This document shows positions 8,791-37,299 of a stretch of 51,915 bases of DNA, piece by piece (position 1 is the first letter of the stretch; the number at the start of each line of letters is the position of its first letter). The notes under the pieces were generated by a model that had not been told where the DNA came from, did not search any database, and worked only from the letters and a program-made list of their open reading frames with translations. Source of the DNA: an uncultured Anaerolineae bacterium. GTDB taxonomy: Bacteria; Chloroflexota; Anaerolineae; Promineifilales; Promineifilaceae. The stretch lies in assembly GCA_965368765.1 (NCBI GenBank), contig CBDUOF010000001.1:1-51915 (forward strand), in the 5' to 3' direction. A program made the translations under genes and the position numbers.

Positions 8791-9077
8791 AAACTTAATC
8801 CTCCAAAGTCTATTAAGTGAGGCAACGGCCGTTCTCCAAGCCATCGACTAAACCGTGGTAGAGGGCCATCCTCGGTTCATTAGACAATCGTCTAACTGAA
8901 CATCCAAGTTTATATAAACCCGACGCAGATGTCCACTTCTGCGTTTGATTGCCCCTTAATTGCCACTGTCACAACGGCCGTTTCTACCAGGCTAGCCACA
9001 TTACCACTCTTTTTAGCAGCAATTGCACAATAAAACCAAAATATTTGGTGGTATTTTTAATAATTTGCGGAAATAAT

Positions 9078-9117
9078 CAAAATTATTGTTGACAGACACA
9101 AAATTATTGTGTATATT
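9078..9117 (+). promoter_or_regulatory. Candidate sigma70-type promoter with a 12-bp direct repeat, upstream of the DUF2089 gene
   Basis: TTGACA (9089-9094), 17-nt spacer, TATATT (9112-9117). CAAAATTATTGT occurs twice (9078-9089 and 9099-9110), abutting the -35 and filling the spacer. Confidence 0.4.
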
Positions 9118-9202
9118 GCTCACATCGTTTATATTTCAAGCAAGCAATGGCCGTTTATAAAAGCACAACGTAAAAAATAGCCAACCCGTAAGGAATTCAT
9201 TC

Positions 9203-9601
9203 ATGCGTAAATTGTTAGAAAGTTGTCCCGCTTGTGCCGGAGAGTTGGTCGTCACCCAACAATCCTGCCGCAGTTGCGGTACGATGATTGTCGGGGAATT
9301 TACCCCGAATATTTTTTCTCGCTTATCCCCGGAAAACCTGCACTTTTTAGAGCAATTCGTAAAAAACAAAGGCAATGTCAAAGAAATGGAGCGAGAAATT
9401 GGCATGTCTTACTGGACAATTCGCAATCGCCTGAATGAAATTGTGGAAGCACTTGGTTTTGAAAACAAAGAGGTTCCACCCTCTGAAGCGCAAGAAGTGC
9501 TGGCACAAAATCGCCTGGAAATTTTAGCGCGTGTGGACAACGGCGAGATTGACGTCACCGAAGGCATCAAGCTTCTGAATCAGCTAAAGCCTACAACATA
9601 A
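9203..9601 (+). CDS. DUF2089-type protein (N-terminal zinc ribbon plus HTH)
   Basis: 132 aa. N-terminus is CPACAGELVVTQQSCRSCGTMIVGEF (CxxC..CxxC). It is followed by FLEQFVKNKGNVKEMEREIGMSYWTIRNRL, an HTH-like segment characteristic of DUF2089. Confidence 0.7.
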   Translation: MRKLLESCPACAGELVVTQQSCRSCGTMIVGEFTPNIFSRLSPENLHFLEQFVKNKGNVKEMEREIGMSYWTIRNRLNEIVEALGFENKEVPPSEAQEVLAQNRLEILARVDNGEIDVTEGIKLLNQLKPTT

Positions 9602-9732
9602 CCGTATTCACTCCAACTCTTTAAATTGATCAACCGCTTTTCAGAAACGGCCGTCTCGCCGAGGTTGCTTGCTGCCCGATAAACAGTCGCTGACAATTGA
9701 CAAATTGACCAGCAATGATCAAGGAGAATCTT

Positions 9733-10332
9733 ATGAAGGAAGAACGTGCTCAAATATTAGACATGCTGCAAAAAGGCAAGATTACAGTTGATGAGGCAGA
9801 TCAGCTGTTGGAAGCATTGGCGGGAACGGCCGTTTCCGCAAGTCAACCCACCCCCGCTAAAAACATCACGCCGCCTGTGCCGCCAAAATCCGGCCCCAAA
9901 TTAACGTCTGACCAGATCTTGAAACTCAACCGGGAAGGGGTAGACCCAGACTTTATTCGGGCGGTGCGCCAACTGAACAACAGCACCTTGACAGGAGATC
10001 ACATCGTTCGCATGGCGGTCGAGGGCGTGGATCCGGCGTTTATTACGGCCGTTTCCCAACTAGAAAATCTCCCTCTCACTGGAGATCACATTGCACAAAT
10101 GGGCATCGAAGGCGTCGATCCCGACTTTCTGCGAGCCGTGAACGGCTTAACGTTGCAGGGTCTTTCTGGTGACCACATTATGCACATGGGCCTTGAAGGC
10201 GTTGATGATTCGTTTATTCACAAAATAAAAGAGTCAGACTTTATCCATGAACTAACGGGTGACGCCTTCGTACAAATGGCCCTTGAAGGCATCAATGATG
10301 AGTTACTGCAGGAAGCGATTCAGCTATTGTAA
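9733..10332 (+). CDS. SHOCT-like N-terminal domain protein with about five 29-aa repeats (LTGDHIxxMxxEGVDPxFIxAV)
   Basis: Start at ATG 9733, with AAGGAG at 9721-9726. N-terminus is ERAQILDMLQKGKITVDEADQLLEAL. A Pro-rich linker follows, then tandem 29-aa repeats. Confidence 0.7.
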   Translation: MKEERAQILDMLQKGKITVDEADQLLEALAGTAVSASQPTPAKNITPPVPPKSGPKLTSDQILKLNREGVDPDFIRAVRQLNNSTLTGDHIVRMAVEGVDPAFITAVSQLENLPLTGDHIAQMGIEGVDPDFLRAVNGLTLQGLSGDHIMHMGLEGVDDSFIHKIKESDFIHELTGDAFVQMALEGINDELLQEAIQLL

Positions 10333-10410
10333 ACCGTTGGTTACAAGAAAGTGGTGGCTGGCGCAAGCAGCTAGCCGCCATTGCCAGAACCAGCGAAGAA
10401 GGAGCACAAA

Positions 10411-11601
10411 ATGAATGACGAGCGTAAAATGATATTGACGATGTTGGCCGAAGGCAAAGTATCGGCCGAAGAAGCCAATTTACTGCTAGAGGCGTTGACA
10501 ACCAGTGAGGCAAAACCGATTCCGCCAACGCCACCTGCCCCTCCCAAGATGGTGGCGCCGCCCGAATTTGCCAATCAATTCCGCTGGGGAAACCAGGGAC
10601 CGCCCCGCCACGGCAACCAGCACGTCACGCCCGAGTATGTCGAAGCGATGGCGCGAGTTGGCCTAAAGAATCTTATGCCAGATGAACTCTGGCAGCTGCA
10701 AATCCACCACGTGCGCCCTGGCTATATTCAGCAACTGCAGGCCGCTGGCTTAACCGATCTCTCTGTTGATGATATTGTGCAAATGGCAATTCATCACGTG
10801 CGTCCTGAGTTGATTCAGGAAGTACGCAGCCTGGGGCTGTCTCATCTCACGGTGGACGATGTGGTGCAGCTTGGCATCCACAACGTACGCCCTGAATATT
10901 TGCGTCAGGTGCAGGCTTTGGGGCTGACCGATCTCAGTGTAGATGATATTGTGCAGCTAAGTATTCACCGCGTGCGCCCAGAAATGATTCAGGCAATCCG
11001 TGAACTGGGACTGGATGATTTATCAGTAGATGATGTGGTTCAACTTGGCATTCACAACGTACGGCCGAATTTGGTTCGAGAAGTGCGGGCCATGGGGCTG
11101 AACGATCTGACCATTGACCAAATTGTGCAGCTAGGTATTCACAACATCCGGCCAGAGCTCATTCAGCAGCTGCAAGCCTTTGGCTATGACTCCCTTTCTT
11201 TGGACAGCATTGTCAGCCTGGGTATACATAACGTGACGGCCGATTATATTCGAACGATGCGGGGATTTGGCCTGACCGATCTGGATACGGATCAGCTCGT
11301 TGCCATGCGTATTCATGGCGTTGACCCGCATTTTGTAGAGCGAATGGGTCAGCTCGGATTACCGGATTTAACAGCCGATTCCCTCATCTCGATGCGGATA
11401 CACGACGTACGCCCCCAATTTGCCCAAAAAATGCAGGCGGTCCTTGGTAAACAACTCAGTGCCGACGATCTCGTTACGATGAAGATCCACGGCGTGTCTA
11501 CAAAGCTTGCCCAGCGGATGAAAGAGAAGCTCGGCGACATGCTTAGCGCCGACGATTTGGTCGAAATGGCTATTCGCGGCATGACGGAAGCGTATGGTTA
11601 A
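10411..11601 (+). CDS. SHOCT-like N-terminal domain protein with about eleven 29-aa repeats (LSVDDIVQLGIHNVRPExIxxVxxLGLxD)
   Basis: Start at ATG 10411, with GAAGGAG upstream. N-terminus is ERKMILTMLAEGKVSAEEANLLLEAL. A Pro-rich linker follows, then a long tandem array. It is a paralogue of the preceding gene. Confidence 0.7.
   Translation: MNDERKMILTMLAEGKVSAEEANLLLEALTTSEAKPIPPTPPAPPKMVAPPEFANQFRWGNQGPPRHGNQHVTPEYVEAMARVGLKNLMPDELWQLQIHHVRPGYIQQLQAAGLTDLSVDDIVQMAIHHVRPELIQEVRSLGLSHLTVDDVVQLGIHNVRPEYLRQVQALGLTDLSVDDIVQLSIHRVRPEMIQAIRELGLDDLSVDDVVQLGIHNVRPNLVREVRAMGLNDLTIDQIVQLGIHNIRPELIQQLQAFGYDSLSLDSIVSLGIHNVTADYIRTMRGFGLTDLDTDQLVAMRIHGVDPHFVERMGQLGLPDLTADSLISMRIHDVRPQFAQKMQAVLGKQLSADDLVTMKIHGVSTKLAQRMKEKLGDMLSADDLVEMAIRGMTEAYG
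10621..11598 (+). repeat. Tandem 87-bp (29-codon) coding repeats, about 11 units
   Basis: Protein units such as LSVDDIVQMAIHHVRPELIQEVRSLGLSH, LTVDDVVQLGIHNVRPEYLRQVQALGLTD and LSVDDIVQLSIHRVRPEMIQAIRELGLDD. DNA-level similarity is also visible (gatgatattgtgcag...cacaacgtacgccc). Confidence 0.8.
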
Positions 11602-17740: not shown

Positions 17741-20700
17741 TTATATTGTCATCAACCGACTATTTTCGCGGATTCGGTGGCTAAGTGTTTGGATAATGCC
17801 GTGGCTTATTTCGGGCCTATCGGCCATTACTTCACGCAGCGTTCCTTTTTCCAGTTGTAACAGCACCGTTGGCATGAGTGTAACCACGTCGGCGGACCGT
17901 GGTTCTGGATCAAAAATGGCTAACTCCCCCACAACTTCACCTGCTTTCAATTCGGTAACAGGCTTGCCGTTCTTTTGTACCCGCACGGCTCCCTCAACAA
18001 TGATAAACATTTCGCCAGCCAATGCGCCCTCATTGATAAACTGTTTGTGAGCGGGGAGTTCAATTATTTTCATGATTTGGGCGACAGAAGCAAGCACGGA
18101 TTCAGGAACCTGGCTAAAAATATTGGTTCCTTTTAAAAATGAAACTTTTTCAATTGTAAGCATGCTTTGTTCTCCTGAAGATTGATTTAAGGCCCATTGG
18201 GCGGTTTCTAGCGCAGACGGCCGTTTACCAACACCATTTCCGTTGGTTTCCTGCACAAACCGGGTAATTGATGCCGTCCATCGCGCAATGTCGCTGGTCG
18301 CCGCACCATAGATGGCACAGGCTTGCGTCCAATCATCAAACTGTTCTCCCATTCCGATAATCATATTGTTGAGCCAATCCTCGGCTGAGGCTTCAGGCAC
18401 AGAAACGTGCTTGCGCAATGCCGCCAGCCGTTCGCCGATTGTTAGCTCATTATCAATCAACGGCAGCAGCAGTTGCTTATGCGGTGTCGTGAAGATGAGA
18501 TCCACTGTTTCAATAACCTGTGCTTTTTCGTCGCCGCTGCCTAAATCTAAATAGTCACTCACTTGGCGCAAAACATGAGGATCATAAAGGAAAGAGAACA
18601 GAAGCAGAAGGCGTTGTTTGATCTGCTGGATTTCGGTGAGAAGCGCCGCATATAACCAAGAATATGCGCTTGCCGGGTCCACGGTGGCGGCGATGGTTAG
18701 CATGATGGCGGCTTGTTCAACTTCCGCCAAAACGGCCGTTTCAACCTGCAAAACTGCTTCCGGATCGTTGGCCTGGTAGCCGCACCGCTGCAGCGCGGTC
18801 AGCAAGACAAAACGCAGTTCACGGTTAGGATGTAGCAAATGGGGCAACAGGGTTGCCTTTGCTGCGCCATTGGCTAATGTGCCACTAAACCGAACCAGGC
18901 TAAGGCGCGTGGCGAAGTTCAGCCTGTTGTCGGTCAGAGAAGATTCAACATATGGTAAAACGGCCGTCCCATATGCCGCCAACGTACTGACGGCCGTTGA
19001 ACGGGTTTCTACCGACTCTAGTTGCGTAATTACCGCAGGTAACAAGGAAGGGTGGCACGCATTCCCCGCAGCTTGTAAAGCAAAGTTACGTACGTCAGGT
19101 GAGTCACTGAGCAATAATCTCTGCAGCGGCTGATAAAAGTTATGGTTATCCAGCGTAGCCAACGTTTCGGCCAATAGTAATTGATCAGCCTCTTTACTGC
19201 TTTCTGTTAGCGTTAATAGATATTGGCCAGCTTTTACATAACCGGCAATGCTTCCATGGCGAAGCAACCCAACCAAAGCCGCACGCCGCAGCGCGTGCTC
19301 CTCGGATTCAAGCAATCTTACGCCGTTTTCCAGGGCAATTTCTGTGCCAGTCGCAAGCAACGTCTGCAGCATTGCTGCACGCACTGGAAGACTGTTTGAC
19401 GCATTTAAATAGATATCTAAGGGAATCTGGGCCGCCAACGTTGGCTGTGTTTGCAGGCGACCGATCGCTTCCAGTCGCACGGCGTCATTCTCATGCTCAA
19501 CAAGATTTAGCAGCAGGGAACCGTAGTTGGGATACTCAGCCTGTTCCAACACATTGAGCGCTAACCGTACTTGAGCCAGGCTGTTGCTTTGCGCCAGATT
19601 GGTCATGATCTTCATTGTTTCTGGATCATCAAGCGTTAGATCGACTTCATTTAGAGTGCGCTGACTCAACTTCTCGAGTAACGTCGTTGTATAAAGCCGT
19701 TTGGTGCGCCAGCCATAATATGTCCAGGCAACGCAAACCAAAGCGGTGTAAGTAAACAGAAAGGCATCACTACTCAGGTTAAAGGCACGAAATAAAAGCA
19801 ATGAACCGCCAACAACGCCAAATCCCATTGGCTGGCTAACCGCTTCAACCACGGTGATTAACGCCGAGCGGCGCGCTTCTGGCAGCGCCTGATACATCGT
19901 CTTCATGGATGGTTCAGTCAGGCTGACAGAAAGGACAAAATCAGTAACGCGTGCCAAAACGGCCAACACAAAAACGAGGCTAACAAGGGGAAAGCCAGTG
20001 AGCTGTGTCAAAAACAAAGCCAGGATGACCAGGCCAGCTATGATGGGATTACTCATAATGCCAAAACTTAAGCCAAACCGTTTGAGCAAGCGACCAGCGG
20101 CTAACAGCAAAAAGAGCAAGGTCAAAAACGTACCAGCGGCCATAAAGTTGCCAAAGAATGACGCCAGCGATTCGGCCGTTTGAAAACGACGGGCTGCCTG
20201 TATCGTAAAAATGATGATGATCAGCTCTGTGCCATATCCGGAGAAAAAGCGATAGATAAAGATGTGGCGCGCATATGGTTGAGCCAGGACATCCCGCAAC
20301 GTTGCCTCAGACCTTTTGTCATTTGGCTGGCCAAATTCGCGGGGATAGTTATTCAACGTGAGCCAGGTAATTAGATATTGCAGAATACTAAGCCCCAGGC
20401 AAATCAACAGCAGATTGGAAACATTTCCAATAATATTGGTTAATACGGTAACGCTCAAGCCGCCAAAGATAACCGCCCCTGTCTGGCTGGCTAATACAAG
20501 CGGATATGAACGCTTCATTTGGCGAATATCAAACAGACGCGTAGCTTGTAACGTAATAATAATGACCTGGAAAATCAGAAGGGTATTGAAAAGGACCAGA
20601 AGCGCAAAAGAAATCCAGCGCACCGTTCCTGAGCTGGCTGCCAGCCAGCTCACCAAGTAAATTATACAAATAGTTGGGGTGACGGTGAGAAGAAGGCGTC

Positions 20701-20932
20701 GCTCAGTTACTTTTTGAGCATATCGGTTATAGAGTAAAGAGACAGAGGGGACAAAAAAGGCTGTAACTACATACGCTAGCGGCAGCGAATCTGTGCCAAA
20801 ATCAAGTAGAAATCGCGTGTTGGAAACTGCAAACAATAGCGCCAGCGTAAATCCAGCCAAAAAGCTTTGGCTGGCAAGCAATTGTAAAGCAGACCATTTG
20901 GCGACGAACGTACCTGTTTTTAGCTGAATCAT
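17741..20932 (-). CDS. Large multidomain membrane protein: about 12-TM transporter-like N-terminus, HEAT/ARM-like repeats, C-terminal cyclic-nucleotide-binding domain
   Basis: 1063 aa. The first roughly 430 aa are polytopic. The central region has Leu-rich helical repeats. The C-terminal CAP_ED-like segment is FINEGALAGEMFIIVEGAVRV...GEVVGELAIFDPEPRSADVV. Confidence 0.75.
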   Translation of the reverse strand: MIQLKTGTFVAKWSALQLLASQSFLAGFTLALLFAVSNTRFLLDFGTDSLPLAYVVTAFFVPSVSLLYNRYAQKVTERRLLLTVTPTICIIYLVSWLAASSGTVRWISFALLVLFNTLLIFQVIIITLQATRLFDIRQMKRSYPLVLASQTGAVIFGGLSVTVLTNIIGNVSNLLLICLGLSILQYLITWLTLNNYPREFGQPNDKRSEATLRDVLAQPYARHIFIYRFFSGYGTELIIIIFTIQAARRFQTAESLASFFGNFMAAGTFLTLLFLLLAAGRLLKRFGLSFGIMSNPIIAGLVILALFLTQLTGFPLVSLVFVLAVLARVTDFVLSVSLTEPSMKTMYQALPEARRSALITVVEAVSQPMGFGVVGGSLLLFRAFNLSSDAFLFTYTALVCVAWTYYGWRTKRLYTTTLLEKLSQRTLNEVDLTLDDPETMKIMTNLAQSNSLAQVRLALNVLEQAEYPNYGSLLLNLVEHENDAVRLEAIGRLQTQPTLAAQIPLDIYLNASNSLPVRAAMLQTLLATGTEIALENGVRLLESEEHALRRAALVGLLRHGSIAGYVKAGQYLLTLTESSKEADQLLLAETLATLDNHNFYQPLQRLLLSDSPDVRNFALQAAGNACHPSLLPAVITQLESVETRSTAVSTLAAYGTAVLPYVESSLTDNRLNFATRLSLVRFSGTLANGAAKATLLPHLLHPNRELRFVLLTALQRCGYQANDPEAVLQVETAVLAEVEQAAIMLTIAATVDPASAYSWLYAALLTEIQQIKQRLLLLFSFLYDPHVLRQVSDYLDLGSGDEKAQVIETVDLIFTTPHKQLLLPLIDNELTIGERLAALRKHVSVPEASAEDWLNNMIIGMGEQFDDWTQACAIYGAATSDIARWTASITRFVQETNGNGVGKRPSALETAQWALNQSSGEQSMLTIEKVSFLKGTNIFSQVPESVLASVAQIMKIIELPAHKQFINEGALAGEMFIIVEGAVRVQKNGKPVTELKAGEVVGELAIFDPEPRSADVVTLMPTVLLQLEKGTLREVMADRPEISHGIIQTLSHRIRENSRLMTI

Positions 20933-21014
20933 GCTGATTGCACACTTGCTAGGATTTTTTCTTCAGAAGTGAGTGATTTATTGCATTTATCAGTTTACCC
21001 TCTATCATTTTGTT

Positions 21015-22871
21015 ATGCGAGAAATAAACGAAACCCACCCCGAATTTGCACCGCTTGAAACATTATTGGACAAAGCCTTACAGCACAATGAGCTGGTGAG
21101 CCAGCTTGCGCCAGACATCTACCAGCAGCTGCGGCAAGCGATGGAATTTGTCTGGGTAAAGGGTGGGGAAGTGGTCATACGAACGGGTGAGCCGAGCGAT
21201 ACGCTTGCCATCGTGGTTCTGGGACGCGTGCGGGTTGTTCGGCACGAGGCAGCAGGGGTCAAGCGCACGCTTTTAGAATTAGGACACGGGCAAACAATAG
21301 GCGAGATGGGGATGATTACAGAGGAACCTCGCGCCGCCGATGTCATTGCGACTCGAGACACCCTGCTAGCCACTCTGTCCCGTGAGGCATATAACCAGCT
21401 AGTGCAAACTTACCCGTTGGAGATGAATCAGCAGTTTGTAAAACCGGTCATTGGCCGCTTGCAAGCACAGCTACAGGGCACTACGCGGATTAATGCTTCG
21501 GTTTTGACAATGGTGCTGCTGCCCGTAGACGGTAACGTGCCATTGCCAACAGTGGTTGAAAAATTACACCAGAGCTTGCAAAAAGTAGGCCCAACATTGA
21601 TTTTGGACAGCGCTTTTGTTGGGTCCCAATTCGGTCAAATGGATGATGCAGATAGGGAAGTGGCGCAGAAGCTTACCCAATGGCTGGGAGAACAAGAAGC
21701 AGATCACCAAATTGTGGTCTATGTGGATGATAGACAGAATGCGGCATGGACACGGCGCTGTCTGCGGCAGGCAGACAAGATTGTCATCGTAGCGGATACG
21801 GCCGTTTCTACCACACCTCTTACGTCCCAGATTGATGCCCTGCAGCTGCCAGAAGCAGCCGATCTTGATCGTTATCTGTTGTTGATTCAACCAAATGAGA
21901 TCGAACGGCCGCAGGGAACCAGCCAATGGTTGGCTGCCTTCACGGTGCGCCATCATTACCACGTGCGTTTGGGTCAGACCGCAGATATTGACCGCGCCGC
22001 CCGATTGCTAGCCGAACGCGGCGTGGGCATTGTTCTGGGCGGAGCCAGTGCGCGCGGCTTTGTCCATATTGGCGTTCTGCGCGCCTTATACGACGCAGGC
22101 GTCACAATTGATGTGATTGGTGGGGCCAGTTCTGGGGCCGTATCGACTGTAGGCATGGCAGCACCATGGCCGGATGATGAGCTCATCCGTCGAGCCGGCG
22201 CGGGGCCAAAATTGCAGTATACCCTCCCATTTTCCGCGTTTACAACCGGGTTTGGCAACGCAAAATGGATGGAGAATTTCTTTGGCGATCTGCAATTAGA
22301 AGATTGTTGGTTGCCCCATTTCTTCCCGCTCTATAATTTGGCAAAAAACGAGCTTGTCGTTTATGAACGGGGAGAGGCGGCACAACTCCTGCGCGGGGCG
22401 ACAGCCTTGCCAGTTATCTTCCCCCCCTTAATTGAAGATACAAACGTCTTGGTTGACTCAGGGGTCGTTAACTTTTTACCAGTAGACATCATGCGTGAAC
22501 GGCCAGATGTTGCTACGGTTATTGCGGTGAACATTGTTACCTTTGAGAAGGATCAGGGTAAGAAACGTTATGATTATGATGGCCGGATATCTGGGTGGCA
22601 GGTACTTTGGAATCGGCTGAATCCCTTTGCCAAGAAGCTACGCTACATCAAAGTGTTAGACATGCTGTGGCAAACGATGCTGACTGGTGCGGTGCGCTTA
22701 CATCGTGAGACGCGAGACGTGCCCGATTACCGTATAAACATGGTTCTATCCGACTTTGGTGCCTTTGATTTTACCCGAATGAAAGAGTTGGTCGCTTACG
22801 GTTATGAGCAAACGGCCGTTCAGATTAAAGATTTAGAGCTTGACAAGAAGTTCTCGGCACACCTGGATTAA
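21015..22871 (+). CDS. Cyclic-nucleotide-binding domain / patatin-like phospholipase fusion (NTE-like)
   Basis: Start at ATG 21015 (MREINETH). cNMP-binding segment: GGEVVIRTGEPSDTLAIVVLGRV...IGEMGMITEEPRAADVIA. Patatin motifs: GGASARGFVHIGVLRAL (oxyanion), GASSG (GxSxG nucleophile), VDSGV (catalytic Asp). Confidence 0.85.
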   Translation: MREINETHPEFAPLETLLDKALQHNELVSQLAPDIYQQLRQAMEFVWVKGGEVVIRTGEPSDTLAIVVLGRVRVVRHEAAGVKRTLLELGHGQTIGEMGMITEEPRAADVIATRDTLLATLSREAYNQLVQTYPLEMNQQFVKPVIGRLQAQLQGTTRINASVLTMVLLPVDGNVPLPTVVEKLHQSLQKVGPTLILDSAFVGSQFGQMDDADREVAQKLTQWLGEQEADHQIVVYVDDRQNAAWTRRCLRQADKIVIVADTAVSTTPLTSQIDALQLPEAADLDRYLLLIQPNEIERPQGTSQWLAAFTVRHHYHVRLGQTADIDRAARLLAERGVGIVLGGASARGFVHIGVLRALYDAGVTIDVIGGASSGAVSTVGMAAPWPDDELIRRAGAGPKLQYTLPFSAFTTGFGNAKWMENFFGDLQLEDCWLPHFFPLYNLAKNELVVYERGEAAQLLRGATALPVIFPPLIEDTNVLVDSGVVNFLPVDIMRERPDVATVIAVNIVTFEKDQGKKRYDYDGRISGWQVLWNRLNPFAKKLRYIKVLDMLWQTMLTGAVRLHRETRDVPDYRINMVLSDFGAFDFTRMKELVAYGYEQTAVQIKDLELDKKFSAHLD

Positions 22872-24841: not shown

Positions 24842-25378
24842 ATGCACAAGAGTTTAACGGCCGTAAATGACAGTACCGTGGCTGGATTAGGGCGATTGGC
24901 CCGATTTTTTGGCTTTAGCGAAGTAATGGGACGGCTCTATGGCACGCTGCTCATGGAGCCAGAACCGCTCTCCTTGGATGATCTGGCCGGTACGCTGCGC
25001 ATCAGCAAAGGCTCCGTCAGCATGAATATGCGCGCCCTGGAGCGCTGGGGCATGGCAACGGAAGTGTGGATGCGCGGCGAGCGAAAGAAATATTACCAGG
25101 CGGAGTCTGACCTTTGGCAGGTCATCCGCAACGTGCTGGACAGCCGCGAGCGGCGCGAAGTACAGCTTGCGCTGCAGGTGCTTAGCGAAAGTGTAGAAAA
25201 GCTGCAGTCGGCCAACGAAAAGTTGACGCCAGAAGAACAGGAGCTGGCCAAATATTATTTGGAACGCATCGATGACCTGCAGGCGTTTTTCCAGTTTGCC
25301 CAGATGGCGCTAGAAACAGTGCTGGGCAGTCAGGAAACCCTCGATTTTGAAGCCGTCACCAAGATAGAAATCGGCTAA
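24842..25378 (+). CDS. GbsR/MarR-type winged-helix transcriptional regulator
   Basis: 178 aa. The segment FGFSEVMGRLYGTLLMEPEPLSLDDLAGTLRISKGSVSMNMRALERWGM matches the GbsR/OpcR-family N-terminal wHTH pattern. Confidence 0.7.
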   Translation: MHKSLTAVNDSTVAGLGRLARFFGFSEVMGRLYGTLLMEPEPLSLDDLAGTLRISKGSVSMNMRALERWGMATEVWMRGERKKYYQAESDLWQVIRNVLDSRERREVQLALQVLSESVEKLQSANEKLTPEEQELAKYYLERIDDLQAFFQFAQMALETVLGSQETLDFEAVTKIEIG

Positions 25379-25441: not shown

Positions 25442-25969
25442 ATGAAAGTAGCAGTTGGTTCCACAAATCCCGTCAAAGTAACGGCCGTTCGCCAAACCAT
25501 CACTCGCCTCTGGCCAGAAGCTGAAATTGTGCCTGTGGCTGTTCCCAGCGGCGTCAGCGAGATGCCCATGACCGACGAAGAAACACGCATCGGGGCACAC
25601 AATCGGGCGCTCGCCGCTCGTGACGCGCTGGACGCCGATTTTGGCGTGGGTCTGGAAGGGGGCGTGCAGCCGGAGCCATTTGGCCTGACGCTGCATGGTT
25701 GGGTGGTGGTGGTGGACAGAAACGGCCGTACCGGTATCGGTGGGGGCGGACGGTTACCACTGCCAGCGCACATCGCCCAAAAAGTGCTGGCAGGCACAGA
25801 GCTGGGCGACGTAATGGATGAGTTATTGGGCGACCACAACACCAAACAAAAAGGGGGCGCGGTCGGCGCACTAACCAATGGCCTGGTGCTGCGCGGTGAA
25901 ACCTTTGCTCTGGCAGTGGCCTACGCCTTTGCGCCCTTTGTCTCACCAGATTTATACCATGAGCCCTGA
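25442..25969 (+). CDS. yjjX: Inosine/xanthosine triphosphatase (YjjX / DUF84 family NTPase)
   Basis: 175 aa. MKVAVGSTNPVKVTAV...VPSGVSEMPMTDEETRIGAHNRALAA...GLEGG matches the YjjX pattern. Confidence 0.8.
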   Translation: MKVAVGSTNPVKVTAVRQTITRLWPEAEIVPVAVPSGVSEMPMTDEETRIGAHNRALAARDALDADFGVGLEGGVQPEPFGLTLHGWVVVVDRNGRTGIGGGGRLPLPAHIAQKVLAGTELGDVMDELLGDHNTKQKGGAVGALTNGLVLRGETFALAVAYAFAPFVSPDLYHEP

Positions 25970-26191: not shown

Positions 26192-26220
26192 TTTACGCCA
26201 GTTTGATAACGGTTTACAAT
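26192..26220 (+). promoter_or_regulatory. Candidate promoter giving a leaderless nurA-like transcript
   Basis: TTTACG (26192-26197), 17 nt, TACAAT (26215-26220). The ATG at 26228 is 7 nt after the -10 hexamer and no Shine-Dalgarno sequence precedes it. Confidence 0.35.
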
Positions 26221-26227
26221 AACACCC

Positions 26228-27442
26228 ATGACCCTGGAATTTGAAAAGCTAACCGCCGATTTGGAAAAGATGGCTCAAACCACCGCGCGTCGTTTAAGCC
26301 AACGGCGAGAGCGCGTGGCCGAGGCGCTGGACACGCTGCACACCTTCCGCACCAACTGGACGGCCGTTTCCCAAGCCCTCACAACTGCCAAAGATAAGTC
26401 AGACCCAAAGTTTTATCGTTCAGCACGGCCGTTTTCCGAAGCCGAACCACTGGACAGCCACTTCCCCGCACCCACACCGCCGCCACAAGCCACGATCATT
26501 GCCGCCGATGGTTCCCAGATCATGCCCGACCGCCACGCCGCCCATCTTTACTACCTCATCAACGTGGGTGGCATAATCTACCATCACGGCAGCGGCCAAA
26601 CTCCAGAACCGTTTTCCCAGCCAGACATTTTTTACCCGGAAAGCGACGAAGCCATCACCGATTTTAACAGCACCCCCGGTGCGGTGAGCATTGAGCGGGA
26701 TCGGCAAGAGATTGAGACCTTGGCGCGTAAAGCAGTTGCCAATCGGCACAATGCCCTGCCTTTGCTAGCAATCTTAGATCAGCGGCTGCTATATTGGCCT
26801 ATTGGCTCGGCTGGCGTAGCAGACAACGCAGTAGTTACTGAATGGGGCGACCACATGACGGCAATGCGCCACGCGGGGGCCTTGCTTTGCGGCTACATCG
26901 ATCGCCCCGGCACCAGCTCCGTGATGACGCTGCTGCGCTCCATTTTTGGCCTGACAGACGCGCACTTTAATTGGAAGGAGCTGGGCCAGCGCAAAGCCAC
27001 GCAGGGGCTGACCGATGCTGATTTGTTCAGCCAGTTTCTGGCCCCGGGCGAGCGCAGCGCCGTATTTGCCAACATTTCTGATTCCAACGACGTATTCATG
27101 GCGCAAGATGCGGCCAATGAAGTTTGTTTTTTCTACCTCAATCCGGGGCTGTCGGGCAAGAACATTGCCCGGGTGGATATTCCGCGATGGGTGGCGGAGG
27201 ATGCGGGAAGTGTAACGGCCGTTCACAGCCTCCTCATCGATCAATGCCGCATCATGGGGGACTATCCCTACGTCATCGCCCGGGCTGACGAGATGGCCGT
27301 CGTCGGGCGACAAGACGCCAGCGAACTCAACTTCATGATCGACGTCATCATGGAGCGGCACGGCATCAGCGAGGGGATTACGTCCAAGCAGGGCAGCAAA
27401 GATTTAGCCCGAGGCGGCCGTACCCGCCACGAAGGGTTTTGA
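26228..27442 (+). CDS. nurA: NurA-domain nuclease-like protein
   Basis: 404 aa. IIAADGSQI (the catalytic-Asp DGS motif that opens NurA domains), ERDRQEIE, ILDQRLL, CGYIDRPGTSS and YPYVIARADEMAVV follow the order of conserved NurA blocks. It lies in an operon with a HerA-type ATPase. Confidence 0.7.
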   Translation: MTLEFEKLTADLEKMAQTTARRLSQRRERVAEALDTLHTFRTNWTAVSQALTTAKDKSDPKFYRSARPFSEAEPLDSHFPAPTPPPQATIIAADGSQIMPDRHAAHLYYLINVGGIIYHHGSGQTPEPFSQPDIFYPESDEAITDFNSTPGAVSIERDRQEIETLARKAVANRHNALPLLAILDQRLLYWPIGSAGVADNAVVTEWGDHMTAMRHAGALLCGYIDRPGTSSVMTLLRSIFGLTDAHFNWKELGQRKATQGLTDADLFSQFLAPGERSAVFANISDSNDVFMAQDAANEVCFFYLNPGLSGKNIARVDIPRWVAEDAGSVTAVHSLLIDQCRIMGDYPYVIARADEMAVVGRQDASELNFMIDVIMERHGISEGITSKQGSKDLARGGRTRHEGF

Positions 27443-27443
27443 G

Positions 27444-27818
27444 ATGAAAGAATTCGCCAACCTATTGTATCTTCCAATGTGGATTTTTTATCTTGTCGTA
27501 GGCTTCAAAGCATTTCAGCTTGGACGAATGTATGTACGAGGGGAAAAATCATATAAATCATGGCTCAAAGCTGAAGAGTATTTGAACAAAAATGTTGGAT
27601 GGCACTTTTTCTTGGGAGGGGTCTTGATGCTTTTGGTAAGTATCTCAGGCATTATTGCCACATTTTTCGACGTCTTTGCAAAAAAAGAAACATTTTTAGA
27701 AGCTCTGGCCTGTTTAGGCTTGCCTATTTTGTTAATCCTTGGCATTAGTTTCTATATGCTACGGGAACGAATTCTTCAGCTGGAGCCAAAGCCGTCAGAA
27801 AAAGAGGGGGGATTATGA
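27444..27818 (+). CDS. Small hypothetical membrane protein (3 TM), AT-rich gene
   Basis: 124 aa. Its ATG is 1 nt after the nurA stop and its own stop overlaps the next ATG (ATGA). Hydrophobic segments: LLYLPMWIFYLVVGF, FFLGGVLMLLVSISGIIATFF, ALACLGLPILLILGISFYML. I recognise no family. Confidence 0.6.
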   Translation: MKEFANLLYLPMWIFYLVVGFKAFQLGRMYVRGEKSYKSWLKAEEYLNKNVGWHFFLGGVLMLLVSISGIIATFFDVFAKKETFLEALACLGLPILLILGISFYMLRERILQLEPKPSEKEGGL

Positions 27819-28450
27819 ACAAGAATCAGGAAATCGGCCGTATTTTGCGGGCCAGCACGACGGGGTTTGCCGTGGGCTGCCGCGTGGGGCAGCTCAGCGT
27901 GCCTGCCTTTGGTGGGCTGGTGCAGGCTCAGCCAGTGGATGACCGTGAGTGCATCTACGGCCTCATCTACAACATGAGCATCGACGACGATCCGCTGGTG
28001 CGGCGGCTGGTGCTGGCCGAAAATCCCGCGCCGTCGGTAATTGAGGATCAGCGCAACAACCGGCTGTTGCCCATTGAGATGAGCGTGTTGGCGGTTGGCT
28101 ATCAGCTCAACGGCAACGTCAAACACGGCCTGCCGCCACGCCCGCCGCTCAACCTCGATCCCGTTGAGCTGGTCACCAACTCCGACGACATTCGCAGCTT
28201 TACCGACAATTTGGGCTACCTGCGCCTGGTTTTGCGCGCCGTGGGCAGTCCGGTTCCGGTCGATCAGCTGCTGGTGGCCCATATCGCCAGCGCCTATGCT
28301 CTGCGGGGCAACGACCAAGCCTGGGCAGTCGAAGTCGTCAACGAGCTGATTGAACTTTTGCGCAGTAACTATGATGTGCTAATTCCTACACTCGAAGCAT
28401 TGAGTGACGCGCTGCCAACTTTGCAAATTCGTAATTTGGCAATGGAGTAA
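27815..28450 (+). CDS. Hypothetical protein with an N-terminus resembling the HerA HAS-barrel (no ATPase domain)
   Basis: 211 aa with good GC-rich coding character and SD GAGGGGGG. The N-terminus EIGRILRASTTGFAVGCRV..PAFGGLVQAQ...IYGLIYNMSIDDDP parallels PIGYIVGGGLKEGFRIRLTV...GSFVVCENGRFHYYGLITDLQLGSTDP of the HerA gene downstream. The domain assignment is inferred by eye. Confidence 0.55.
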   Translation: MNKNQEIGRILRASTTGFAVGCRVGQLSVPAFGGLVQAQPVDDRECIYGLIYNMSIDDDPLVRRLVLAENPAPSVIEDQRNNRLLPIEMSVLAVGYQLNGNVKHGLPPRPPLNLDPVELVTNSDDIRSFTDNLGYLRLVLRAVGSPVPVDQLLVAHIASAYALRGNDQAWAVEVVNELIELLRSNYDVLIPTLEALSDALPTLQIRNLAME

Positions 28451-28458
28451 TGTAAAAG

Positions 28459-28713
28459 ATGCCCCATTTAATTCAAATTGGTAACTCACAGGGAATTCGT
28501 ATCCCCAATGCACTCATCCAGCAAGCTGGTCTAGAAAAGACGGAGCTTGAATTTGTTCTGGTAGAAGGAGGTCTATTGATAAAACCGATTCGGTCTCGGG
28601 TGCGCCAGGGTTGGGAAAAACAAATTCGGGAAGCGATAGAAGCTCATGGTAGTGACATAACAGACAGTGAGTGGCTTGAAGCATCGTTAGTTAATGAGGA
28701 ATTTAATGGTTGA
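28459..28713 (+). CDS. AbrB/MazE (SpoVT-AbrB fold) antitoxin-like DNA-binding protein, with no cognate toxin
   Basis: 84 aa. The N-terminus MPHLIQIGNSQGIRIPNALIQQAGL..ELEFVLVEGGLLIKP is the classic swapped-hairpin SpoVT/AbrB motif (GNSQGIRIP). The gene is AT-rich and its 3' end overlaps the HerA start. Confidence 0.75.
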   Translation: MPHLIQIGNSQGIRIPNALIQQAGLEKTELEFVLVEGGLLIKPIRSRVRQGWEKQIREAIEAHGSDITDSEWLEASLVNEEFNG

Positions 28714-30430
28714 CATAAATTCAAATGAACCAATCGGCTACATCGTGGGCGGCGGCCTGAAGGAAGGCTTTCGCATTCGGTTGACGGTACCGGCGGACCG
28801 GGTGCAGGAAGGGAGCTTTGTGGTGTGTGAAAACGGCCGTTTCCACTACTACGGCCTCATCACCGACCTGCAGCTAGGCAGCACCGATCCCCGCTTTGCC
28901 GACGAAAAAAGTGACCGACTCCAACCTGCCATCCAGCAAGCCCTGCTGGGCAAAACCCTGTACACCACCCTGATGATGTACCCCACCCTGCTCATGGACA
29001 CCGGGCCACAGTTTGGCTCACCAGACCGTGCCGCCTGGGAAGATCGCATTGCCGACGGCAAAGAAAATCCAGGGCCAAAGCCGGTCAAAACGGTGCCGGC
29101 CCACCACGCTGAGGTGCGCCAGGCTAATGAAGCCGATGTGGCCCAGATTTTTGGCGAAGAAGGCGACGGTATGTTTGTCGTAGGGCACACCATCGAGCAG
29201 GGCTACCCGGTGCGGCTCGATTTGAAGAAGTTTGTCAAGCGCAGCAGCGGTATTTTTGGTGCCACGGGCACGGGCAAAAGCTTCCTGACGCGCATGGTGC
29301 TGGCTGGGCTGATGCGTGAAGATGCGGCGGCGGCGCTGGTTTTTGACATGCACAATGAATACGCTTTTGACGACACCGATACCGACCGCATGGTGACTGT
29401 GCGCGGCTTGCGCGGCCTGTTTGGCGGCAGCAAGGTGCAGGTGGCGGCCTTGGGCAAGGGGGCGCAAGTGCGGGGCAAATCACCCGACTTCACTCTGGAA
29501 ATTAGCCTGAAAGATTTCCAAACCAGCGACATCGAGCTGTTGTCTGAATCGCTGAACCTGACGGACACAGCCAGCGTGACGCTGAACGCGCTCGTCCGTG
29601 CTTTTGGCGACAATTGGTTTGCCGAATTTATGAAGCTGGAGCCGGGCGCCGTAGAAACGGACCCGGAAAGTGGCAAGACGTTCCCGGCGGACAATTCGGT
29701 GGCGGCCTGGTCGCGACAAAACAACGTGCATGAGAAGGCGGCAGAAGCGCTGCATCGCAAGTTGGCCGTTATTTTTGATAAACCGTACGTGACGGAACGG
29801 CCGTCTCACGATTTTGTCTCGGAAATTGTAGATAAGTTGGAAAACGGCCGTCACGTCATTCTCAGTTTTGGCGAGTACGACAACGATTTGGATTATTTGC
29901 TCGTCTCCAATATTCTGACGCGACGGATTCGCCAGCATTGGGTGAAGAAAACGGAGCAGCACAAGACGCACGGTAAGCCTGCCCCACGTCCGCTGCTGAT
30001 CGCCATTGAGGAGGCACATAAGCTGCTCAATCCTCATTTGTCTGGGCAGACGGCGTTTGGCATTATTGCCCGTGAGCTGCGCAAATATTTTGTCACGCTG
30101 CTGGTGGTGGATCAACGGCCGTCTGGCATCGACGACGAGGTCATGAGCCAGCTAGGCACGCGCATTACCGGCTGGCTGGGGGATGAAGACGACATCCGCG
30201 CCGTACTCACCGGCCTGGCTGGGCGCGACCAGCTGCGCGGCATGTTGGCCCGTCTGCAAGAAAAAGAAGAGGTGCTGCTGCTGGGCTGGGGCGTTAAGAT
30301 GCCTATCCCCGTGCGCTCGCGCCGCTATGACGAAACGTTTTATGAAGATATGAAGGGGCGTCATTCCTCAGCGCAATCCAGCTTGGCCGAGTTGGAAGAT
30401 GATGAGTTTAATGATCTCTTTTTTGGGTAA
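28706..30430 (+). CDS. herA: HerA / DUF87-family hexameric ATPase (FtsK-HerA superfamily)
   Basis: Start at ATG 28706, with GAGGAA 4 nt upstream; an alternative ATG lies at 28694. N-terminal HAS-barrel-like segment. Walker A GIFGATGTGKSFL, Walker B LLIAIEEAHKLL, and the family-typical LLVVDQRPSGIDDEVMSQLGTRITGWL. Confidence 0.85.
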   Translation: MVDINSNEPIGYIVGGGLKEGFRIRLTVPADRVQEGSFVVCENGRFHYYGLITDLQLGSTDPRFADEKSDRLQPAIQQALLGKTLYTTLMMYPTLLMDTGPQFGSPDRAAWEDRIADGKENPGPKPVKTVPAHHAEVRQANEADVAQIFGEEGDGMFVVGHTIEQGYPVRLDLKKFVKRSSGIFGATGTGKSFLTRMVLAGLMREDAAAALVFDMHNEYAFDDTDTDRMVTVRGLRGLFGGSKVQVAALGKGAQVRGKSPDFTLEISLKDFQTSDIELLSESLNLTDTASVTLNALVRAFGDNWFAEFMKLEPGAVETDPESGKTFPADNSVAAWSRQNNVHEKAAEALHRKLAVIFDKPYVTERPSHDFVSEIVDKLENGRHVILSFGEYDNDLDYLLVSNILTRRIRQHWVKKTEQHKTHGKPAPRPLLIAIEEAHKLLNPHLSGQTAFGIIARELRKYFVTLLVVDQRPSGIDDEVMSQLGTRITGWLGDEDDIRAVLTGLAGRDQLRGMLARLQEKEEVLLLGWGVKMPIPVRSRRYDETFYEDMKGRHSSAQSSLAELEDDEFNDLFFG

Positions 30431-33963: not shown

Positions 33964-35472
33964 CTATGTCTGATTCTGAATCTCCATCAAGGCTAATTTG
34001 CGATCGCGTTGTTTTTGCTGTTCCCACAAAATGGTTGGCGCCACCGCGCGTTCTCGGCATTGTTCGGCCGTTAGTGGACAGCGCTCACAGGTTTCATTGA
34101 TGATTACCTGGGGAATAGCCGGATCCTGGGCAAACCGAATCGTATTCTTCAAATCCGGATCTACCCGAAAACCAACAATGACACTACTCGTTACCCCTGG
34201 CGACAAGCTTAGCTCTCGTGAAAAGCCCAGGCACAAAAATTTATCCTGCGACTCTACAAATTCGGACATTTGCACCCCAACATGAGGCTGGTCTGAGGAC
34301 GTTGGCACCTGCGCCGCGCTTTCCATGTCGCGCAGCAGTCGTACCGATAGCCAGCGCCGACAGTAATGCTCCAACAACCCTATCCCGCTTGGCACAATAA
34401 GCTGGTTCATGTTCAGCTGTTTAATCAGCTGGTAGCTGCCGCTGTTTTCCTGATGATGAAAACGCAAAAAGTGGAGCTTTACGCCAAAAAATTGAGGGAT
34501 TAACTCACTAAAGCGATAAAACAACATCTCCGGCGTAACGTGATATTTATCCAGCATTGCCAGCATAAGGTGTCCAGACCAGCTGGTTTGTTCAAATAAA
34601 TGCTGCAAATCAGCCAAAATATGGTGGCGCGGCATGAGCAAAGCACCCCCAAAATAGGCTGCCTTAAAATCGTTTAGAATTTGCAGAAACGAGTTGATTT
34701 GATCCGGTGTTGAGGCAAAAGAACGCTCTTTAAGCTTGAGGTATTGATAGCCAACCTCTCGAGCCAATATAAACTTAATTTGCCGTGTGCTCAGCGCATT
34801 GTTAATCAGTAAACGGGGTGTTTTTCCTTCGAAAAATACCGAACGATATTTGGACAGCGCTGGTTGCTGATCAATTGTTTCAAGATCAATTTCGTAACCA
34901 TATTCATTATGTAAGATGGCTTCCAGCACGTCCTGGCTGGCTGGGAGATCGCTGTTCAGACCGTATTTCTGCCCGAATTTTTCATTAAATGCCTGCGCAG
35001 CATCTTCCAAGTCCTGGAAATAATTCTCATGAATTTCCTGGTAAGAGCGTAGCGCCGCGCGCAAAAAATCTTCTTCGTGCAGGCCATAGCGACGGCCGAT
35101 TTCCAGCACTGCATGCAGCAAAGCACTTGCCTTCTCTGGCTCCCGCGTGAGGAGCGTCACCAGATCACTTAACTCAAGGCCAAATTCTTCAAAAGGAAAG
35201 CGCTGAAAGGCAATTGACTTCAACGTCGTGCTGAGATAGGTCAATGATGGCGAGAGTGCGATGGACACCAATTCGTCATACGGCTTATTGAGCACTTCTA
35301 CCATGCGCATAATTTTATCAACGCGGGGGTACTTACGACCTTTTTCAATCTCAGTAACGTAGGAGGGGGACAGTTCACATTGATGGGCAAATTCTGAAAG
35401 GGTCAACCCCGTTTCCAGGCGCGCTTGACGTACTTTCATGCCAAAAATGATGTTGATAAGGTTATTGGTCAT
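33964..35472 (-). CDS. XRE-HTH / ImmA-IrrE-like / C-terminal Cys-cluster regulator of the RamB-PrpR-ScfR family
   Basis: 502 aa. N-terminal HTH: VRQARLETGLTLSEFAHQCELSPSYVTEIEKGRKYP. C-terminal segment: INETCERCPLTAEQCRERA. It is divergent from aceB-aceA, the classical genomic context of this family. Confidence 0.75.
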   Translation of the reverse strand: MTNNLINIIFGMKVRQARLETGLTLSEFAHQCELSPSYVTEIEKGRKYPRVDKIMRMVEVLNKPYDELVSIALSPSLTYLSTTLKSIAFQRFPFEEFGLELSDLVTLLTREPEKASALLHAVLEIGRRYGLHEEDFLRAALRSYQEIHENYFQDLEDAAQAFNEKFGQKYGLNSDLPASQDVLEAILHNEYGYEIDLETIDQQPALSKYRSVFFEGKTPRLLINNALSTRQIKFILAREVGYQYLKLKERSFASTPDQINSFLQILNDFKAAYFGGALLMPRHHILADLQHLFEQTSWSGHLMLAMLDKYHVTPEMLFYRFSELIPQFFGVKLHFLRFHHQENSGSYQLIKQLNMNQLIVPSGIGLLEHYCRRWLSVRLLRDMESAAQVPTSSDQPHVGVQMSEFVESQDKFLCLGFSRELSLSPGVTSSVIVGFRVDPDLKNTIRFAQDPAIPQVIINETCERCPLTAEQCRERAVAPTILWEQQKQRDRKLALMEIQNQT

Positions 35473-35715: not shown

Positions 35716-37299
35716 ATGAGTCGCGATTTTCAGCTTACTGGCACACTTTACCCCGAATTTGAATCTATCCTGACACCAGAAGCGTTGACCTTTGTTGCTG
35801 CTTTAGAAAAACGGTTTGGTTCACGGCGTCATGAGTTGTTGCAGCAGCGGGTGGCTCGACAGGCACGATTGGACGCCGGTGAAATGCCAAACTTCTTACC
35901 GGAAACGGCCGAAATTCGCAGCCGTGATTGGCAAGTGGCCCCCATCCCCGCGGATCTGATGGATCGCCGTGTCGAAATTACCGGACCCGTTGACCGCAAG
36001 ATGGTTATCAACGCGCTGAACTCCGGGGCCAATATGTACATGGCCGATTTTGAAGATTCTCACTCCCCCACCTGGCAAGATACCATTCGTGGCCAAATCA
36101 ACCTGAGCGATGCCATTGACGGCACGATTACATACACCAACCCCAACGGAAAATTTTACGAACTAAACGCCTCCATTGCCACCCTGTTGGTGCGGCCACG
36201 CGGCTGGCATTTAGACGAGAAACATATGCAGATAAACGGCCGTTCCGTGTCCGCCTCTCTATTTGATTTTGGCCTCTTCTTTTTTCACAATGCCAAAAAG
36301 CTACTGTCTAAAGGCAGTGGGCCCTACTTTTATCTACCTAAACTGGAAAGTCATTTAGAAGCTCGGCTATGGAACGATGTCTTTATCCTGGCGCAAGAAA
36401 TGCTGGGCGTGCCGCAAGGAACAATTCGCGCCACGGTGCTCATTGAAAATATCTTGGCTGCTTTTGAGATGGACGAAATTTTGTATGAACTGCGCGACCA
36501 TTCATCAGGACTTAACTGTGGCCGTTGGGATTACATCTTCAGCGCCATTCGCAAATTCCGTAATCACCCTACCTTTGTATTGCCAGACCGCGCCGAAGTG
36601 ACCATGACCAGCCACATGATGCGGTCTTACTCACTGCTGCTCATCCAAACCTGCCACCGACGCGGCATTCACGCCATGGGCGGTATGGCAGCACAAATTC
36701 CCATTAAGAATGATCCGGCAGCCAATGAAGCAGCGCTGGCAAAAGTGCGTGCCGACAAAGAGCGCGAGGCGCAAGATGGGCATGATGGCACCTGGGTGGC
36801 GCACCCTGCACTCGTGGCCATAGCCAAAGAAGAGTTTGATAAGGTCATGCCTGGCGCCAACCAGATTGAACGATTGCGACAAGATGTTCATATTACGGCC
36901 GATGATTTACTGGTTGTACCAGAAGGCAACATTACTGAAGCGGGGCTGCGTACCAACATCGACGTAGGCATTCAATATATGGCGTCCTGGCTGGATGGCA
37001 GTGGCTGTGTGCCCATTTATAACCTGATGGAAGATGCCGCGACGGCCGAAATTTCCCGCGCACAGGTGTGGCAATGGCTGCATACACCTGGCACTAAACT
37101 GGCCGACGGCCGTCTTGTTACCCCGGAGCTGGTGCAGATGCTGATGCCCACAGTGATGCAGCAAATTAAAGGCATTGTGGGAGCAGAGCGATTTGAGCAA
37201 GGCAAATATCGGGATGCCAGCAAACTGTTTGAGCAAATTATTACGGGCAAAACATTTACAGAATTTTTAACATTGCCTGCTTACGAATATCTAAACTGA
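35716..37299 (+). CDS. aceB: Malate synthase A
   Basis: 527 aa with SD AAGGAG. The size and blocks such as [36 protein letters not shown] and [11 protein letters not shown] are characteristic of AceB. It is adjacent to isocitrate lyase. Confidence 0.92.

Follow-up and report, generated by a model that had tools for sequence, protein, structure and literature searches.

The closest described relatives of the system considered here are the HerA-NurA machines of archaea and bacteria. The archaeal end-resection operon has the gene order herA-mre11-rad50-nurA; to our knowledge, it contains no stand-alone HAS-barrel gene. In every characterised NurA-HerA machine that we know of, be it for repair or for phage defence, the effector is recruited by the HAS-barrel face of the motor ring itself. 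In Deinococcus radiodurans and Thermus, nurA and herA form a bacterial chromosomal operon implicated in end resection. In the solved archaeal and bacterial complexes, a NurA dimer docks on the HAS-barrel ring of the HerA hexamer (PMC9960219). Here we analyse a nurA-herA operon at positions 26228-30430 of a 51,915-nucleotide stretch of DNA (the whole of which is called the window below) from an uncultured Anaerolineae bacterium. The conserved unit at this locus consists of three genes in the fixed order NurA, P211, HerA and is observed in about 170 related loci; P211 is a protein of about 200 amino acids (aa), 211 aa in the window, encoded by the middle gene. We think it probable, though by no means certain, that the operon encodes a three-component NurA-HerA machine for DNA-end processing, with P211 as a non-enzymatic subunit, and that the two further genes found here, for a small membrane protein and for MazE, are cargo.

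The NurA-P211-HerA unit

Two sets of related loci were considered. The genome set was obtained by tblastn of the window proteins against 84 related genomic loci. The metagenome set, found with a narrower alignment, comprises 80 metagenomic loci from another clade, where P211 is about 50% identical. Adjacency was counted if NurA was encoded at most 4 kb upstream, or HerA at most 5 kb downstream, of P211, in loci with enough flanking sequence. NurA is upstream of P211 in 66 of 67 loci of the genome set and in all 40 of the metagenome set, and HerA is downstream in 61 of 74 and 61 of 61 loci, respectively. The median intergenic gaps in the triad are 32-122 nt, and the three genes abut in many loci. 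In the window, a distance of 1.26 kb separates nurA from herA, both genes having the same orientation; in most relatives they flank the P211 gene directly. The nearest loci belong to metagenome-assembled genomes of Candidatus Leptofilum, Promineifilaceae and Ardenticatenaceae (Anaerolineae, Chloroflexota), and the same triad occurs in one metagenome-assembled genome of Armatimonadota and in more distant Chloroflexota. An earlier note on this DNA had described a five-gene order, with the 211-aa protein as an undescribed partner of a nuclease-ATPase pair. The survey of gene neighbourhoods agrees with the latter point, as P211 is conserved across the related loci. Of the five-gene order it retained NurA-P211-HerA, whereas the membrane protein is missing from nearly all of the loci and MazE is confined to a few.

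The first gene of the core, nurA (26228-27442, + strand, 404 aa), encodes a NurA-family nuclease. Residues 89-359 score 60.2 bits with the Pfam profile PF09376, for which the cut-off is 21 (E 2.8e-16), and match it from position 2 to position 254 of 254. The motifs IIAADGSQI, CGYIDRPGTSS and YPYVIARADEMAVV, previously proposed as family signatures, are all present in the translation. Among 118 homologues, the acidic residues D94 (in AADGSQ), E161, D184, D263 and E355, candidate metal ligands of an RNase H-like active site, are conserved to 95% or more. In the related loci, the identity of NurA across the order is 41-93% (tblastn), compared with 65-95% for P211. A sequence search of the PDB with the window NurA matched no NurA structure.

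The last gene, herA (28706-30430, + strand), encodes 574 aa from the ATG at 28706. An alternative ATG at 28694 would yield 578 aa; relatives favour the start at 28706. The product matches the DUF87/HerA central domain (PF01935, 96.7 bits, E 2.9e-27). Its own HAS barrel (PF09378, residues 14-71) scores 21.1 bits, under the gathering score of 25.2. All three motifs assigned to HerA in advance, GATGTGKS, IAIEEAH and VVDQRPSGID, occur in the translation. The GATGTGKS stretch (G185-S192), E435/E436 of IAIEEAH and R471 of DQRPS are conserved to 95% or more among 90 homologues and, as judged from the sequence, give the window HerA the Walker A, Walker B and arginine finger of the HerA family.

The best PDB match of the window HerA is Sulfolobus HerA (4d2i, 1e-20), and the best NCBIfam match is HerA_Thermprot (1.5e-25). 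All NCBIfam equivalog cut-offs were missed: the scores are 89.6 of 800 bits for HerA_Thermprot, 53 of 970 for helicase_HerA and 68.3 of 800 for HerA_antiphage. On these scores the protein classifies as a member of the family and not as an equivalog of any curated subgroup. Comparison with the D. radiodurans HerA by phmmer gave no match even at E<=10, and thus the window HerA is on a different HerA branch. It has the features of an archaeal-like type of hexameric translocase. Hence the assignment of the outer genes to NurA and HerA is upheld, by Pfam for both and additionally by NCBIfam and PDB for HerA. PADLOC models of defence HerA proteins also match the window HerA (best 8.9e-30). PADLOC returned nothing for NurA, the membrane protein, P211 or MazE, and NCBIfam recognised none of the four non-HerA proteins.

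In the window, the operon is preceded by genes for phosphoenolpyruvate carboxylase, a ThiD-type kinase, a helix-turn-helix (HTH) protein and an NTPase_I-T protein, and followed by genes for a PlsC-type acyltransferase, a histidine kinase and malate synthase. Across the order, the string ThiD, HTH protein, NTPase, NurA ... HerA, PlsC is kept. The locus is a vertically inherited chromosomal operon in housekeeping synteny, and not a defence island. No relatives of P211 were found in the viral, phage and plasmid collections IMG/VR, INPHARED and PLSDB, and a phage or mobile origin of P211 was rejected on this basis.

Some loci of this kind encode further components of end resection. In a bacterial metagenome contig (L087), the gene string is NTPase_I-T, NurA, P214, HerA, Mre11, Rad50, with Mre11 (Metallophos) and Rad50 (SMC_N, zinc hook) encoded at 7442-10645 directly after herA. 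A Rad50-like gene follows herA in L151 (9374-11176), and in L043 there is an Mre11 match on the opposite strand, at a distance of about 7 kb downstream from P211.

A different arrangement was observed in a Logan contig of SRR8925804 (L088, 3971-6315). There, the gene for P0202, a divergent homologue of P211, overlaps herA at its start, and no NurA is recognisable. The surrounding genes are small and unannotated; a LexA-like DNA-binding protein is encoded upstream of the pair and a bpMoxR AAA+ ATPase downstream of it. Pfam made no assignments for the L088 neighbours. This pair may represent a different P211-HerA system.

P211: predicted fold and possible role

The middle gene of the core (27815-28450, + strand) encodes P211. 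The protein is 65-95% identical across about 80 genomes of Ardenticatenales/Promineifilaceae. At E<=1e-3, its family includes 521 clusters at 50% identity, 274 of which have E<=1e-10. Its named members come from Anaerolineae, Herpetosiphonaceae and Armatimonadota and are always labelled as hypothetical proteins. Searches of Pfam (E<=1), NCBIfam, PADLOC and the PDB sequences left P211 unmatched, and this includes the HAS-barrel profile PF09378. PDB profile matches to uracil-DNA-glycosylase (E 0.13 or worse) were discarded as chance. No profile link between P211 and NurA was found. Three proteins that seemed to fuse the C-terminus of NurA to the N-terminus of P211 (P0205, P0236, P0251) contain garbled stretches and appear to be frameshifted or read-through calls; they were not used as Rosetta-stone evidence.

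Neither the family searches nor the conservation pattern revealed a catalytic motif in P211. The conserved residues form mainly Arg/Asp/Pro patches: R9, R12, D58, D59, R63, D78, R80, R83 and E88, followed by LPPRP at 106-110, D115, R137, H156, W170, E177 and R183.

The AlphaFold2 model of P211 built from a diverse alignment has a predicted local distance difference test score (pLDDT) of 92.8 and a predicted template modelling score of 0.88; an earlier, weaker model had pLDDT 80.2. The model contains a beta-barrel at approximately residues 5-119 with a two-helix insertion at 60-81, and then a helical C-terminal part at approximately 123-199. With both models, the top 50 Foldseek matches in the PDB are all HerA chains, in their N-terminal region. 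The best is 9x1m_A, the Thermococcus kodakarensis HerA in complex with NurA (E 1.2e-5, 146 columns). The others include HerA of Sulfolobus solfataricus, HerA of D. radiodurans (7wrx, 7f6d) and the HerA proteins of the Sir2, DUF4297 and Tdp systems. In the best superpositions, on HerA of the DUF4297 system, the root-mean-square deviation (rmsd) is 2.3-3.4 A over about 125-130 columns. The model and the Foldseek matches thus bear out the earlier suggestion of a second HAS barrel at the N-terminus of P211, whereas Pfam detects none. According to the model, P211 is a free-standing protein resembling the N-terminal, HAS-barrel region of HerA, with a helical C-terminal part.

Since it is the HAS-barrel face of HerA that docks NurA, the P211 barrel is most likely a binding partner of NurA, and probably of HerA too. 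P211 could form an adaptor ring stacked between the nuclease and the motor. Alternatively, it could be a keeper, retaining NurA before its transfer to HerA. As a whole, the machine would serve double-strand-break repair by resecting or degrading DNA ends. We favour such a role in resection or repair over phage defence because HerA is archaeal-like, the NurA and HerA motifs are conserved, Mre11 or Rad50 genes are linked to the operon in L087 and L151, the chromosomal context is vertical and syntenic, and P211 does not occur in the phage, viral and plasmid collections.

A role in defence deserves consideration nevertheless. The core could be an anti-phage or anti-plasmid system of HerA plus a nuclease, with P211 as an assembly or sensor subunit. 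Indeed, by rmsd the closest matches of the P211 barrel are HerA-effector complexes (9c1m, 8zit), HerA matches the PADLOC HerA models, and the gaps in the operon gather restriction-modification (RM) and toxin-antitoxin (TA) cargo, as described below. However, defence systems are typically patchy and island-borne in distribution, whereas P211 and HerA are 65-95% identical across the order and the housekeeping flanks are stable. The best sequence matches of HerA are to archaeal repair HerA, Mre11-Rad50 is linked to the operon in L087, and no copies were seen on plasmids, phages or viral contigs. We consider the defence role of the core quite unlikely.

Several observations weigh against an end-processing machine of NurA, P211 and HerA. 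Firstly, the motor gene is not always at hand. Thirteen loci of the genome set, as well as L085, have no herA in the 5 kb downstream of P211, with NurA and P211 adjacent and intact (L001, L004, L017, L019-L021, L030, L033, L039, L040, L047, L080, L082, L085). Genomes without an adjacent herA include GCA_015075765.1, GCA_016716065.1 and GCA_026003835.1. As NurA and P211 persist without a nearby HerA, the latter may be dispensable for their role. Secondly, neither Mre11 nor Rad50 is encoded in the 52-kb window, and they are linked to the operon in 2-3 of about 170 loci only. Thirdly, TA and RM genes accumulate at the locus, as they do in defence islands. Finally, when normalised to the whole query, the template modelling (TM) scores of P211 in Foldseek reach a modest 0.33-0.44, since the alignments cover no more than its N-terminal two thirds. 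The hhalign probability is a marginal 42% for P211 against HerA N-terminal regions alone and 3.7% (E 0.011) against full-length HerA. The profiles of P211 and the HerA N-terminus have the pattern G-x-x-V...YGLI-x-D in common, and this similarity, too, is statistically marginal. Thus the HAS-barrel assignment relies on the predicted structure.

The loci with unlinked HerA fall on at least six separate branches of the P211 neighbour-joining tree. As the adjacency of HerA was lost at least six times and the NurA-P211 pair was always kept, NurA is the tightest partner of P211. This leads to another explanation, in which P211 is a negative regulator or decoy, that is, a motor-less HAS-barrel surface sequestering NurA, and the two proteins form a nuclease-keeper pair. 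It agrees with the adjacency of NurA and P211 in 106 of 107 loci, compared to 122 of 135 for P211 and HerA, with the survival of the pair through the independent losses of herA linkage, with the fact that the P211 model copies the exact surface bound by NurA in the solved complexes, and with the absence of a recognised catalytic motif. However, in many cargo-free loci the P211 gene has nurA and herA as its immediate neighbours on either side, an arrangement that agrees just as well with co-assembly, and the L088 contig has P211 and HerA with no recognisable NurA. We regard a decoy as rather doubtful, though somewhat less so than defence by the core.

A bolder version of the end-processing machine may be suggested tentatively. 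P211 could define an unrecognised class of three-component NurA-HerA systems, in Chloroflexota and some Armatimonadota, where its own ring is the true docking platform for NurA and a clamp encircling DNA, and where NurA-P211 can work with HerA from another locus or with no motor at all. This has perhaps one chance in a few. If true, the HAS barrel would be an autonomous and transferable module of nuclease recruitment, and more than a domain of the ATPase.

Inserted genes, operon gaps and flanking genes

The window has two more genes within the operon: that of the small membrane protein (27444-27818, + strand, 124 aa), between nurA and the P211 gene, and mazE (28459-28713, + strand, 84 aa), between the P211 gene and herA. 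An open reading frame (ORF) check reproduced the coordinates of the five packed + strand ORFs and all four spacings: +1 nt, the ATGA overlap at 27815-27818, +8 nt, and the overlap ATGGTTGA at 28706-28713. No terminator-like site convincingly divides the five genes. A promoter-like site just 5' of the nurA start codon (26192-26220, + strand; TTTACG-17-TACAAT, 9/12 matches) is weak evidence, and the number of such sites in the region is not above that in shuffled sequence.

The two inserted genes differ from the core in composition. The GC content and the GC content at third codon positions are 0.58 and 0.67 for nurA, 0.59 and 0.72 for the P211 gene, and 0.57 and 0.68 for herA. The respective values are 0.39 and 0.40 for the membrane-protein gene, and 0.44 and 0.34 for mazE.

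The membrane-protein gene is a lineage-specific insertion. Its product has no family match in Pfam, PADLOC or NCBIfam, and the gene has no tblastn match in either locus set. Among 5.8 billion protein clusters only two relatives were found, with 92% and 68% identity. The former occupies the same slot in a sister locus (L090), whose operon is NurA, TM129, DUF433, P211, HerA, with no MazE. In the same slot, locus L005 has a 116-aa ORF with a weak, 28% match to the membrane protein. The gene differs from its L090 counterpart by 22 synonymous and 15 non-synonymous codon differences, and thus it is a real gene under some constraint. A hydrophobicity scan (19-residue Kyte-Doolittle window, threshold 1.6) identified two strong hydrophobic segments, at approximately residues 53-78 and 83-107, and a weaker N-terminal one under the threshold. 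Therefore, the label of a protein with three transmembrane segments, given to it in the earlier note, holds approximately: two segments are strong, and the third falls short.

The mazE product matches PF04014 (36.5 bits against a cut-off of 24.7, E 4.5e-9). It is an orphan antitoxin of the MazE/AbrB type, as had been supposed: there is no mazF anywhere in the window, nor a remnant of it at the mazE/herA junction. Within the clade to which the window belongs, MazE occurs in about 9 loci out of some 85, in varying positions and usually with MazF. At the P211-herA junction, locus L006 is colinear with the window, and both have mazE only. At the same junction in L008, L009, L016 and L028, mazE is followed by the gene of a 113-aa PemK/MazF toxin (Pfam 3.3e-25), then by a spacer and herA. 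As mazF is present in these loci and not in the window, the window MazE was orphaned by the loss of mazF. The deletion of mazF removed the partner of MazE and left the 8-nt overlap with herA. Given the foreign composition of the inserted genes, this overlap is a deletion junction and not a designed coupling.

The membrane-protein gene and mazE are foreign, horizontally acquired cargo outside the machine. Both are intact and, compared with the nearest relatives (L090 and L006), show more synonymous than non-synonymous change per site. They are probably expressed, yet accessory.

These data bear on the initial proposal that all five genes constitute one regulated nuclease-ATPase system, possibly anti-phage, with the membrane protein as a sensor or effector and MazE as a regulator. 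The genes are packed and co-oriented with no convincing internal terminator, both inserted genes are intact under the pattern of change just described, HerA matches the PADLOC defence models, and TA and RM genes cluster at the locus in relatives. However, the membrane protein, with its two relatives among 5.8 billion clusters, is missing from nearly all of about 170 operons, MazE is confined to about 9 loci in variable position and mostly with MazF, and both genes are compositionally foreign. Apart from HerA nothing matches PADLOC, and there is no partner like Sir2, DUF4297 or TdpC. The core itself is inherited vertically in housekeeping synteny, P211 is not found in phage, plasmid and IMG/VR collections, and one relative links the operon to Mre11-Rad50. 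A conserved, coupled five-gene system was thus not supported, the evidence speaks against defence by means of a membrane sensor or effector, and we hold the five-gene proposal to be highly improbable. For genome mining it follows that tight spacing and overlapping stop and start codons are no proof of one system.

Insertions at this locus are not specific to the window. The gap between NurA and P211 is at least 300 nt in 23 of 66 loci of the genome set and in 1 of 40 of the metagenome set; for the gap between P211 and HerA, the corresponding numbers are 13 of 61 and 22 of 61. Nearly all ORFs in the gaps of the related loci (L001-L170) are co-oriented with the operon. They encode, among others, PDDEXK_3 (PD-(D/E)XK) proteins in 11 loci, pairs of DUF433 and DUF5615/PIN-like proteins in 5, MazE-MazF pairs in 4, N6/N4 DNA methyltransferases in 4, SacI-like restriction enzymes in 3 (a weak Pfam match, E 4.4e-4) and 23S_rRNA_IVP four-helix proteins in 3. 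By inspection only, an HNH-like protein was also noted, as was an ORF for an AbrB-type antitoxin with a toxin-like ORF after it. Both gaps of the operon have served repeatedly as landing sites for TA, RM and PD-(D/E)XK genes. Such landing pads in a housekeeping operon make a useful case for how selfish genes exploit host operons.

The gene directly upstream of nurA (25442-25969, + strand) encodes a protein of the NTPase_I-T (DUF84) family (PF01931, E 1.3e-54). It is a syntenic neighbour of the machine. This gene, of the inosine/xanthosine triphosphatase family, directly precedes nurA in most loci of the Ardenticatenales clade and in the distant L087 (3193-3792). The linkage may be functional, combining nucleotide-pool sanitation with DNA repair, or merely stable synteny. 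An interpretation of TdpAB as a system for repair of deaminated bases, which would have tied it to this neighbour, was dropped, since the published papers describe TdpABC as phosphorothioate-based defence.

Always between the genes for the ThiD-like kinase and NTPase_I-T there is a gene (24842-25378, + strand) for an acidic protein of 178 aa, 55-97% identical across the clade. The window protein has no confident Pfam match, and the orthologue in L004 has a faint match to HTH_20. It could be a local regulator.

Three more genes of the window may be mentioned. A 502-aa protein with an XRE-type HTH domain and a Peptidase_M78 (ImmA/IrrE-like) domain is encoded at 33964-35472 (- strand), divergently from malate synthase (35716-37299, + strand); it is probably a metabolic regulator, unrelated to the NurA-HerA operon. 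Further upstream, a 1063-aa HEAT-repeat/cNMP protein (17741-20932, - strand) is encoded back to back with a 632-aa protein combining cNMP, NTE P-loop and patatin phospholipase domains (20973-22871, + strand).

Comparison with known systems

A literature search for a third NurA-HerA component or for NurA-HerA in Chloroflexota retrieved nothing relevant, although a brief earlier mention of solo HAS-barrel proteins is possible. Among the described systems, that of the archaea S. solfataricus and T. kodakarensis likewise consists of a NurA nuclease and a HerA with Walker A, Walker B and arginine finger. It is the closest by the sequence type of HerA, and its Mre11 and Rad50 recur in the gene string of the relative L087. 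It differs in gene order, whereas the window has no Mre11 or Rad50 and adds a stand-alone HAS-barrel gene between nurA and herA.

The bacterial system of D. radiodurans and Thermus resembles the window in being a chromosomal nurA-herA operon. NurA of D. radiodurans docks on the HAS-barrel face of HerA (PMC9960219), and the P211 model resembles the N-terminus of that HerA. However, the Deinococcus system has two genes and no described counterpart of P211, and its HerA is on a different branch.

In the defence systems Sir2-HerA/Nezha, DUF4297-HerA and TdpABC, a HerA hexamer likewise carries an effector on its HAS-barrel side. The effector there is Sir2, DUF4297 or TdpB/C, as opposed to NurA here; Pfam and PADLOC find none of these in the window system, which is vertical and housekeeping-like and not island-like. 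With type II MazEF toxin-antitoxin modules the window shares only the antitoxin of the MazE/AbrB fold, lodged inside another operon, the toxin gene being missing.

A widespread, strongly conserved, stand-alone HAS-barrel protein suggests a further layer of architecture or regulation, missing from current structural models, and P211 provides a concrete subunit for the study of how NurA is loaded, restrained and handed over. By its domains the system belongs to the NurA and HerA families, and it would work like the known end-resection machines of this kind. A conserved stand-alone HAS-barrel subunit sets it apart from all NurA-HerA and HerA-effector systems described so far that we know of. The NurA-HerA core itself is ordinary; what is added to this well-studied machine is an undescribed and widespread third subunit.

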